Shown: positions 15,001 through 18,000, counted from the stretch's first letter. The stretch: 64,000 bases of DNA from an uncultured Spirochaetota bacterium (GCA_963835575.1 CAWIGG010000002.1:1344001-1408000); one strand, 5' to 3'. A program made the numbers.

Positions 15001-18000
15001 AACGCCGGAGAGCGATTTGATCTCGAGCTGATTTTCGGCCGGGTCAAACCCGAGAACATTGATTTTGCTGTGCACTAAATCGTCCCTGACGGCTTTTCCA
15101 TACAGCATCTTCATCATGGTCGTTTTGCCCGCGCCGTTCGGGCCCAGGAAACCGAAGCACGTCGCTTCCTCAACCTCGAAAGAGAGATTTTTGACAGCCC
15201 TGATGTCTTTATAGCTTTTGCTGACATTATTTACGGTGATAACGGTTCGACTCATTTTCCTTCCTTATTAATAATTGTCTTAACCTAATGATTATAACAA
15301 CCGGCCTTGATTTTGTAAAATTCAATTTATTTTTTTATTAAACAATCTTTTCATTTACAACCAAGAACACTAAAGGGATCGGAGGCCGCAGAAAACCAGG
15401 AGAAATATTCGACCACAGATTTCACAGATTACGAAAGTGTCTAATTGGATGGACTCCACCCTTTATACAAAAGAACTCAATTAAGAATCCTTTTCAATCA
15501 TATTAAAGCTCATAGGCCAAACACAATTTAAATCGGGATTTCACTGATTATCCATACAGATATATTCCTTAAACCTAACTCCCAAATTCCATCTGTGCAA
15601 TCAGTGAAATCTGTGGTTCCCTCCGGTGTTCAGTGGTTAACCCCCGTTAGTGGTCTGCAACTTGTACTAGACCCAGGTCCCGGATTAAATCGGGGAGATC
15701 CGGGTTGCTCTTTGTTTCTTTGTGGTCAGAAATCAAGAAATCCCGATATCCGTCGGCGCCCTTCCCAGGCTTTTCAGCAGAGTCAATGTTTCCTCAATCT
15801 GTTTATTTAAATCCTCGTTCATATGCGCGCGGTACGGATAAATGGAGTATGCCTTTTTATATTGAGAAGGCGTCAGGTTGAGCATCACGGAGTTAGCGCC
15901 CGCCATCAGGCCTCTGCTCCGGGCCTCCTTACTGAGTGTTTCGAAGCCTGTCGTGACCAGTATCTTAGCGTTTTCCGGATCGGCGATCCTTGCCAGCGCG
16001 ATTGTTTTTAATATCAATTCAACGGGAGGTTTCTTCTGCCTTTCGAGGATCGTCCCCGGCGAAGGCAGGAACGGACCGAAGCTGTACATTTCCGTATGCA
16101 GTTCCCTGGCCAGGAGGATATCGTTCACAATGTCTTCCTCCGTCTGTCCCGGCAGGCCGATGAGCGAACCTGTGATGATGAGATAGCCTATTTTATAAGC
16201 TTCCCTCAAATGTTCCAGCCTTGTCCCGAGCGAATAGCCCGGATGAAGCTTTTTATAAATTTCCGGTTTCGATGTCTCGAACCGGAGGAGGAGTCCCCTC
16301 GCGCCGGCCTCATAAAGCTTTTTCAGTCCTTCGACGCCGGTCTCGCCGAAACTGATGAATATCAGCACAGGGTCCCTTTCTTTTATTTTCCGGATGATGA
16401 GAGCCAGTGCGTCAGAAGAATAACCGCAATTCTCGCCGCTCTGGAGGACAAGGGCTTTAAAGCCGTATGTCTGAATGGCTTCATGAGCGCTTTCCAGGAT
16501 CTCATTTTCCGTCATCCTGTACCGTTTGACGTTTTTAACTCCAATGGAAATACCGCAGTAGGCGCAGTTCCTGGAACATTGATTGGAAAACTCGATAATG
16601 CCATGGACACAGCATGAATTTTTATGGTACTTTTGTCTCAGCTGATTGGCGGTATGATAGAGTTCTTCCAGAGCACCGGGTTTCTTCATTTTCATCAGGA
16701 CCGTCATTTCCTGCCAAGTCAGTTCTTCACGGCGGAGCGCTTTTTCGAGCAGGTTTCCGGCATTTGAATCTATTGATTTGCCTTTACGATTAATACTCAG
16801 AAGCTCCTCGTCTTTTTTCTGGAGCTCAAAGAACAGTTCCCTCCAGGTTTTGAGTATCTCCTTCGCTTCCTTCGGCGCTATTTTTTCAATAACAAACCCG
16901 CCCTGAGCGTAGATATAATCGCCCGGAGTGAGGTCATGAAACTCGTTCAGCGCTTTCTTCTCCTCGCCGAAATAATCGACATACGCCCATTTTCCATCAA
17001 CAGACTTGACTTTACCCGGTATGGCATAACACATGGCAATTGTCACCTCTTAACTGATAATTATACTGCATTTTAAACCAAGCGTCAAATTACATATCAT
17101 AGCTGTCCTTCTAATAATTTTCACAGGAAGGCCTCGCGGATAATTAATAAAAATATTTTATTAACTTAAATAGGGAATCTGTGTAAATCCGTTGAATCTG
17201 CGGAGTTATAATAGAAAGTTGTGTATAGGAATAAATATTATAAAAAAGATGGCGTACCCTCTATAATTTATTTACGACAATAAACAAAAGGAGGAATACG
17301 CCATATGCCGAAGCACAACGAAGATTTTAAGCTCTTAGAGGCTTTTAATCAAGATGAAACAGTAGAATTTTTATGTCTTGAAGAATTGGCAAGGATCGGG
17401 GCCAGGGAAATAATCAAGAAGGCTCTGGAAGATGAAATTAATGGGTTTCTTCAGGAGAGAGAGCATTTAACTATCGAAGACGGGAGAAAGGCAATAGTAA
17501 GAAATGGGTATCATAAAGCCCGTCAGATTCTCATTGGTGGAGGGGCTATTGATGTATGTATTCCGAGAACAAGGAACCGACTCGGAGGCGACAATTTTCA
17601 AAGCCTAATAGTACCGCCGTATATGAGAAAAAGCCTGAGAATTGAGGAAGCCATTCCATTGTTGTATCTCTATGGAGTCTCAGAGATGGATATGGAGAAT
17701 GCCTTGAGAGGATTGCTTGGTGAAGAAGCGAAAGGATTATCAGCCTCAAGTATAAGCAGAATGAAACAAGGATGGGGTAAAGAATATGATGAGTGGCGGA
17801 CATCCGATTTAAGCGATAAAAAGTATTGCTATATATGGGTTGACGGCATTTACTTCAATGTACAGGGCAGCGAAGACCGTTTATGCACTCTTGTAATGAT
17901 CGGAGCCAATGAGAATGGTGAAAAGGAGATTATTCTTGTTGAAGAAGGTTACAGAGAGAATTCCGAGACTTGGTTAGGGATATTAAGAAACCTAAAAGAA

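Follow-up and report, generated by a model that had tools for sequence, protein, structure and literature searches.

The fusion gene and its genome

The window, by which we mean the whole stretch of 64,000 nucleotides analysed here, comes from an uncultured Spirochaetota bacterium and carries on its minus strand a gene in which a HypC domain is joined to a HydE-like radical SAM barrel. The features of this gene are listed below, where conservation refers to 100 aligned fusion sequences.

15733..17034, minus strand: gene of the HypC::HydE-like radical SAM fusion (P0001), 433 aa, identified by its open reading frame, Pfam, PDB sequence match and AlphaFold2
16843..17034, minus strand: HypC domain, residues 1-64 (PF01455, E 2e-14)
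17029-17031, minus strand: codon of Cys2 of the HypC domain, invariant (100/100)
15754..16758, minus strand: HydE-like radical SAM barrel, residues 93-427 (HydE match E 6e-67; fold rmsd 1.4 Å)
16603..16614, minus strand: Cys141-Cys142-x-His144, in which CxH is the subfamily mark and His144 occupies the position of HydE Arg54
16555..16578, minus strand: CxxxCxxC radical SAM cluster motif, Cys153/157/160 (100/100)
15883..16089, minus strand: span from Met316 to Met384, which correspond to the putative iron-relay residues Met224 and Met291 of HydE (99/100 each)
17060..17088, minus strand: sigma-70-type promoter-like site, on consensus matches only (11/12), 26 bases 5' of the ATG
17049-17046, minus strand: GAGG (ribosome-binding stretch), 5' of the ATG at 17034

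The reading frame of 433 aa begins at the ATG at 17034 on the minus strand; the promoter-like site and the position of the GAGG are consistent with a start here and with Cys2 at the N-terminus. An overlap with the ribosome-binding stretch, and the MCY with which the relatives begin, led us to reject a GTG at 17046 as the start. Pfam assigned residues 1-64 to HupF_HypC above the cut-off (53.8 bits against 28.5) and residues 147-306 to Radical_SAM, and recognized a BATS domain; the TIGR00074 (HypC) score of 41.5 was slightly below the cut-off of 48, and the TIGR03956 (HydE) score of 239.7 bits was below that of 254.6. PDB sequence matches were obtained to T. maritima HydE and to HypC 2z1c (E 2e-11). 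The AlphaFold2 model, with HydE 3ciw as the top fold match, had a pTM of 0.91, the same as that given in an earlier survey of this genome, which had likewise listed profile matches to HydE and HypC. Since both Pfam domains were present in all of the best 119 database relatives, the fusion is not a frameshift artefact. PylB, BioB and HmdB belong to the same barrel superfamily, but matched with 135, 106 and 80 bits, respectively, against 240 for HydE, and share no gene context with the fusion. The survey had labelled the barrel HydE-type; HydE is indeed its nearest family, but the protein represents a sister subfamily and not HydE proper, as it scores below the TIGR03956 cut-off and has lost the residues of the dimer site.

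The neighbours of the fusion gene in the window (an ABC transporter, a mutator transposase and a formate-tetrahydrofolate ligase) are all unrelated to it, and no hydrogenase genes were found among the scanned window ORFs, so that the gene stands alone here. The transposase, of the Mutator family (IS256-like), is encoded at 17305-18555, divergently from the fusion gene, and may be linked to the separation of the latter from its usual operon. Elsewhere in the window, a 2,456-aa NRPS-like protein (PilZ, two condensation domains, adenylation, carrier and terminal reductase) is encoded at 29511-36881 behind a sugar ABC transporter, an RHH antitoxin-like gene overlaps a PIN-domain gene at 12737-13419 as a VapBC-like pair, and two neighbouring ORFs at 10128-11299 (ACT domains, then a phosphatase-like piece) resemble one split gene.

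The genome of the window is 94% complete and consists of 7 contigs. It encodes a group 3b and a group 4 [NiFe] large subunit, each in an operon, with both CxxC motifs intact and adjoining proteases, as well as HypA and HypB. A search of this genome returned zero matches to HypD and nothing above the cut-off for HypE and HypF, and the fusion is its sole HypC. The survey had described the same set of genes, with a single, fused HypC that keeps Cys2, and this description holds. Separately, the genome carries a canonical hydG-hydE locus, HydF and two [FeFe] enzymes. A 526-aa remnant of the HypF C-terminus, comprising the Kae1-like domains only, is encoded on contig 4 (L204:5408-6988; likewise in G021), between a TPR gene on one side and acetolactate synthase genes on the other, and may be what is left of a lost Hyp system, now in other use. 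We set this ORF aside as a source of cyanide: it has neither the acylphosphatase nor the zinc-finger part, it is absent from four other fusion genomes, and it has no likeness to the fusion.

Distribution of the fusion and of HypD, HypE and HypF

The class to which the window's genome belongs comprises 43 genomes. The fusion was found in 13 of them, all of which have a large subunit and none of which has HypD. All eight HypD genomes of the class are without the fusion, two incomplete bins have a large subunit without HypD or the fusion, and 20 genomes lack all three. The survey's finding of large subunits in 12 of the 13 fusion genomes had to be corrected, as G027 also gave a match (E 5e-11) with both CxxC motifs, while its HypD counts for the class stood.

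An alignment scan of species genomes gave 345 matches, from which 80 loci were kept; a scan with a single protein gave only two ordinary HydE loci. Whole-genome searches covered 50 of the 73 non-Brevinematales loci, chosen by the longest contigs. HypD was found in 0/50 of these genomes, HypE in 0/63 (the 50 and the 13 fusion genomes of the class), and HypF above the cut-off in none of the six fusion genomes tested. The numbers differ slightly from those of the survey (379 matches, HypD 0/47, HypE 0/32), but the pattern of a widespread fusion that excludes HypD and HypE agrees, and its range now extends to Patescibacteria and DPANN archaea. Among a further 47 genomes reached by wider scans, HypD occurred in one, G320, in which hypC-hypD-hypE lies on a 2,956-base contig and the fusion is also present; this is either a true exception or a binning error. 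Apart from G320, the HypD, HypE and whole HypF of the canonical HypABCDEF pathway were not found in the fusion genomes searched for them (six in the case of HypF).

An Omnitrophota sample of 221 genomes (220 drawn evenly, and G081 as the centre) provided a comparison within one group. Exactly one HypC was found in 101 genomes: 72 free, 28 fused (25 of them read, and G211, G279 and G301 called fused by frame length alone) and one cut at a contig end. HypD was present in 72/72 genomes with a free HypC and in the contig-cut one, and in 0/28 genomes with a fused HypC. Large subunits were found in all 101 HypC genomes, including 28/28 of the fused type, and in three others. Five [NiFe] genomes lacked HypD as well as the fusion: G016 (73% complete), G025 (57%), G193, G210 and G306.

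The absence of hypDEF could reflect incomplete bins, or the large subunits could be inactive relics. Nearly all of the genomes compared are indeed metagenome bins, and one bin contains both systems. However, HypD was recovered in all 72 controls of the same sample, so that incompleteness explains its absence from fusion bins poorly, even if related genomes do not count as independent. Moreover, HypE was missing from 12 fusion genomes with at least 90% completeness (completeness values cover genomes other than those reached through loci), and the single-chromosome genome G081 is without HypD, HypE and HypF. With respect to relics, the median dN/dS, calculated for close pairs only, was 0.048 (52 pairs) for the group 3b and 0.058 (4 pairs) for the group 4 large subunits, 0.085 (69 pairs) for the fusion and 0.103 (27 pairs) for HydG; judged from these ratios, the large subunits of fusion genomes are under purifying selection. 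We regard either form of this explanation as barely credible.

HypB was absent from 4/4 Omnitrophota fusion genomes tested. The HypA encoded beside the fusion (L116:4449-4691 and other scan loci) is usually about 80 aa long and aligns with the profile over no more than positions 1-69 of 116. Nickel insertion in fusion genomes may be simplified too.

Association with HydG and the CxH mark

Within the 80 loci, we found a group 3b large subunit in 50, a group 4 large subunit in 16, a protease in 60, HypA in 51, HydG in 49, Rex in 41 and HydA in 11, and a large subunit lay within 10 kb of the fusion in 66. The usual gene order is hydrogenase genes, protease, hypA, fusion, (rex), hydG. This linkage is in agreement with the survey, which had placed a group 3b large subunit in 43 and hydG in 37 of its 80 loci.

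HydG (TIGR03955) was detected above the family cut-off in 60/63 fusion genomes and was not found in the other three, whereas HydF and the [FeFe] catalytic domain were detected in 28/63 and 29/63, respectively, with the class included (51/52 for HydG and 22/52 for HydF in the survey). Outside the class, HydF was present in 15/50 and the [FeFe] domain in 16/50 genomes, leaving 34/50 without the latter. Of the 33 genomes among these 50 that have HydG and no HydF, 32 are without an [FeFe] catalytic domain, which reproduces the earlier count of 28/29. HydG and the fusion are at most 1 kb apart in 26/34 [FeFe]-less genomes versus 1/16 [FeFe]-bearing genomes. The HydG copies from [FeFe]-less genomes keep the SAM motif, the His of GxHT and the three C-terminal cysteines (CX2CX22C or CX5CX19C) in 29/29 cases. 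In cut-off and motifs they agree with HydG; what differs is that in fusion genomes HydG is kept without HydF or HydA, adjoining the HypC fusion or fused to it. Such HypC-barrel-HydG triple fusions, of which the survey had reported one (921 aa, Omnitrophota), were found with lengths of 915 aa (the terminal gene of a group 4 operon), 906 aa and 881 aa, the last in a Falkowbacteria bin on a different branch.

One may ask whether HydG is needed at all. The fusion could act as a [NiFe] maturase that makes its own ligands or collects them, or its barrel could be a HypD-like scaffold without a radical step, with HydG encoded nearby because of shared regulation. The three genomes in which HydG was not found and the Rex gene in 41/80 loci would fit this explanation. 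The triple fusions, and the retention of HydG and its move beside the fusion where the [FeFe] enzyme is absent, speak against it, and together with the residue data below they make it decidedly unlikely in both forms.

A profile search and two scans extended the family to Patescibacteria, Woesearchaeota, Altiarchaeota, Micrarchaeota, WOR-3, Elusimicrobiota and others. The CxH motif of the first strand, as opposed to the Arg54 of HydE, sorts the loci into a CxH type and an Arg type (three duplicate loci were dropped, and two Micrarchaeia loci were left untyped by the pattern). The 46 CxH loci contain a [NiFe] large subunit in 19 cases, HydG in 26, HydF in none and HydA in one, whereas the 39 Arg-type loci contain them in 2, 26, 19 and 10 cases, respectively. 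In a tree of 73 rows, which were a random subsample with the CxH columns kept in the alignment, a branch with a support of 100 separates the CxH rows from all others. In Patescibacteria with the fusion apart from hydrogenase genes, a large subunit was found in 5/5 genomes; a 799-kb contig of one of them also encodes HydG and a free HypC, and a search of this contig revealed no HydA, HydF, HypD, HypE or HypF.

These counts bear on another explanation, namely that the fusion serves as a maturase of [FeFe] enzymes, its HypC part being a vestigial tag on a HydE, and that the [NiFe] enzymes are matured otherwise. HydE is its nearest family, and HydA does occur in the 11 loci mentioned above. However, 34 of the 50 fusion genomes searched outside the class have no [FeFe] domain, those that do mostly retain an ordinary HydE, and the CxH loci are associated with [NiFe] large subunits and not with HydF or HydA. 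In addition, HydF and a further match of ordinary HydE length are present in all 13 fusion genomes of the class, whose H-cluster therefore does not depend on the fusion. We consider this explanation very improbable.

Several variants of the family were observed along the way. Unfused CxH proteins (L218, L289, L291 and L310) are encoded directly 5' of hydG in Patescibacteria and Micrarchaeota; they branch early when the tree is rooted at its midpoint, and no HypC partner was located for them. In some Patescibacteria without HypD, the fusion is accompanied by a free HypC that has a His-rich tail and is encoded next to it or elsewhere in the genome (L327, L339, L353 and L216; G333 contig 1 near 556 kb). 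A short subtype of 392 aa (L145-L151) has about 40 fewer linker residues, and hydG lies upstream, not downstream, of it in 6/7 loci. In L309:9640-11125, the fusion frame starts with ICLTIP versus MCLTIP in relatives, owing to an unusual start codon or a sequencing change. In P0171, P0176, P0195 and P0233, which represent another offshoot of HydE, a HydE-like protein is joined to a putative Se/S carrier domain (PF11823); in P0148, HydE of the ordinary Arg type is joined to HydG.

A proposed route to the [NiFe] iron centre

We compared the residues of the 100 fusion rows with those of 21 ordinary HydE (T. maritima numbering) and 20 free HypC sequences. The 100 rows include genome repeats (e.g. 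L128, L153), and 80 of them derive from scan patterns that hold Cys2 and Arg246-Gly247; 19 rows picked by Pfam showed the same residues, with Cys2 in 19/19. The barrel of the fusion keeps the cluster cysteines, E58, Q107, S136, L157, R159, E161, R180, M224, T268/T269, M291, Y303 and Y306. The lower site is altered: R54 is replaced by His in 100/100 rows, T134 mostly by Phe, Cys or Ile, and R155 by Gly or Ala in 100/100, whereas ordinary HydE has Arg54 in 21/21, Thr134 in 19/21 and Arg155 in 21/21. The position of HydE Lys309 is Arg in 86/100 rows. Cys141, Cys142, Arg246 and Glu365 are gained; in distant branches Cys142 and His144 persist, but Cys141 does not. In the HypC domain, the conserved His of the VHAGFA motif, an important residue of HypC, corresponds to Gln44 in 100/100 fusion rows and is His in 20/20 free HypC. 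The strongly altered lower pocket, including the Lys309 replacement, could suit a maturase independent of HydG or a scaffold barrel; the conservation of the SAM-cluster and upper-pocket residues argues against both.

According to a simulation study (accessible text of PMC11826987), R54, T134, R155 and T269 contact the cyanides of the HydE iron dimer, M291 and M224 form the iron relay, and K309 takes part in the breakdown of cysteine. The fusion shares with HydE (TIGR03956; T. maritima 3CIW, 7O1O) the fold, the CxxxCxxC motif, the upper-pocket residues and the association with HydG, and differs from it in the His at the R54 position, the new Cys142, the N-terminal HypC domain, the missing link to HydF and HydA, and its separate clade. 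With HypC/HybG/HupF and the HypCD scaffold (PF01455; accessible text of PMC11565642 and PMC8692609) it shares Cys2, the fold family and the place in [NiFe] operons beside the protease and HypA; it differs in the added radical SAM barrel, in the replacement of the conserved His (by Gln in the main clade) and in a genome without HypD, HypE and a whole HypF.

When the HypC domain and the barrel were docked as separate chains, the score was 0.79 versus 0.14 for the best control, with at least 94% contact agreement between runs and a partner pLDDT of at least 82. The mark for docking was reached by 116/157 solved complexes and by 2/215 mismatched pairs, rates that are only roughly applicable here; the halves of one protein tend to pass. 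The predicted interface comprises HypC residues 2-5 and 42-45 and barrel residues 142-144, 191-194, 222-224, 246, 285, 315, 377 and 420-433; it is a list of interface residues and not a Cys2-Cys142 contact. In this model, HypC residues 2-5 are predicted to dock at the lower exit of the barrel (142-144, 246, 315, 420-433), and in HydE, according to the accessible text of PMC10114646, the product departs through the lower site, beneath the C-terminal stretch. Judged from its residues, the fusion is HydE-like at the entrance and HypCD-like at the exit, and is a member of neither the HydE nor the Hyp system.

Based on the genome comparison and the structure predictions, which appear to reveal how uncultured bacteria and archaea can build the iron centre, we propose that the fusion and HydG together probably replace HypD, HypE and HypF. 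The Fe(CO)2CN-cysteine made by HydG is likely to be stripped and passed as one iron to Cys2 of HypC for the [NiFe] site. First, HydG would split two tyrosines to give complex B, Fe(II)(cysteine)(CO)2(CN), and one spare cyanide, as described in the literature for HydG and as suggested here by its intact motifs; the second cyanide releases complex B from HydG (accessible text of PMC10114646). Complex B would then bind in the upper pocket of the barrel, where the 5'-deoxyadenosyl radical would attack the cysteine sulfur and loosen the iron, as shown for HydE, in crystals of which S-adenosylcysteine forms (same source). The iron would travel via Met384 and Met316 to the lower pocket, where, without the dimerisation residues of HydE, a single iron could be held between Cys142 and HypC Cys2. 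Such holding would resemble the standard route, in which Fe(CN)2CO sits between HypC Cys2 and HypD Cys41 and is delivered by HypC (accessible text of PMC11565642 and PMC8692609). One CO would next be swapped for the spare cyanide of HydG to yield Fe(CN)2CO, and finally the HypC domain would deliver the iron to the apo large subunit, HypA would add nickel and the protease would trim the tail, as the biology of HypC and the operon context suggest. The survey's reading was an alternative [NiFe] route via HydG, and all of its genomic predictions that we re-tested held, i.e. the exclusion of HypD and HypE, the intact large subunits, the operon position, HydG without [FeFe] enzymes and the triple fusions. 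Several observations weigh against the route: G320 with both systems, the three genomes in which HydG was not found, the five [NiFe] genomes lacking HypD as well as the fusion, the HypF remnants, the missing HypB, the unfused CxH proteins and the free HypC of some fusion genomes.

In the literature searched, which included few subscription papers, we found, like the survey, no description of the fusion or of the route. Terms for them gave no matches in the accessible text of a Margulisbacteria paper (PMC6349859), and term look-up found none in that of papers on Omnitrophota (PMC10066038), archaeal [FeFe] enzymes (PMC11216029) and HydF (PMC13360658). The accessible text of PMC7304191 mentions a family beside the group 3b enzymes of Patescibacteria, some members of which are hypC-like, and nothing further. 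The parts are known families; the pathway is new. HypD, HypE and HypF have been treated as the sole makers of Fe(CN)2CO, and HydG and HydE as [FeFe]-specific, and both views would be overturned by the proposed route. In our assessment, there is a good chance that many bacterial phyla and DPANN archaea use a second route to the [NiFe] site, one that is fed by tyrosine and joins two hydrogenase assembly lines regarded as independent. If so, two genes, and sometimes one, would replace HypDEF, which would explain the [NiFe] hydrogenases of small-genome Patescibacteria, Omnitrophota and DPANN without hypDEF, and matches to HydG or HydE would be unsafe markers of [FeFe] metabolism. The fusion would also be a natural enzyme in which HydE chemistry is expected to end at a single iron, a property relevant to the product of HydE and the fate of the second cyanide of HydG, and a much smaller kit could suffice for the production of [NiFe] hydrogenases in a foreign host.

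The weakest step of the proposed route is the ligand swap, to which we give about an even chance. The ligand ratio of complex B (two CO and one CN) does not match that of Fe(CN)2CO, and we know of no CO/CN exchange step. A variant of the route, counted within our estimate for it, is that Fe(CO)2(CN) is delivered unchanged, giving a [NiFe] site with one cyanide and two carbonyls. The composition of complex B (accessible text of PMC10114646) and the lack of an exchange enzyme in the loci are in favour of this variant. The large subunits, however, make it rather unlikely. We collected 44 group 3b sequences of 420-500 aa, including the genome's own, and 16 group 4 sequences of at least 350 aa from fusion loci; both CxxC motifs, PRG and P-T/S were kept in 60/60 (47 large subunits with these motifs had been noted in the survey), and the same motifs are kept in the controls from HypD genomes (12 group 3b and 8 group 4). 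A search of these large subunits for an altered ligand pocket found none, with two weakly skewed columns (L105 and I130) in group 3b and none in group 4. In a group 3b tree of 36 rows, which used 24 of the 44 fusion rows, the enzymes of fusion and HypD genomes interleave, with four label changes, two of them forced by strong branches. The motifs kept, the interleaved tree and the low dN/dS indicate that ordinary enzymes under selection appear to be matured by either route.
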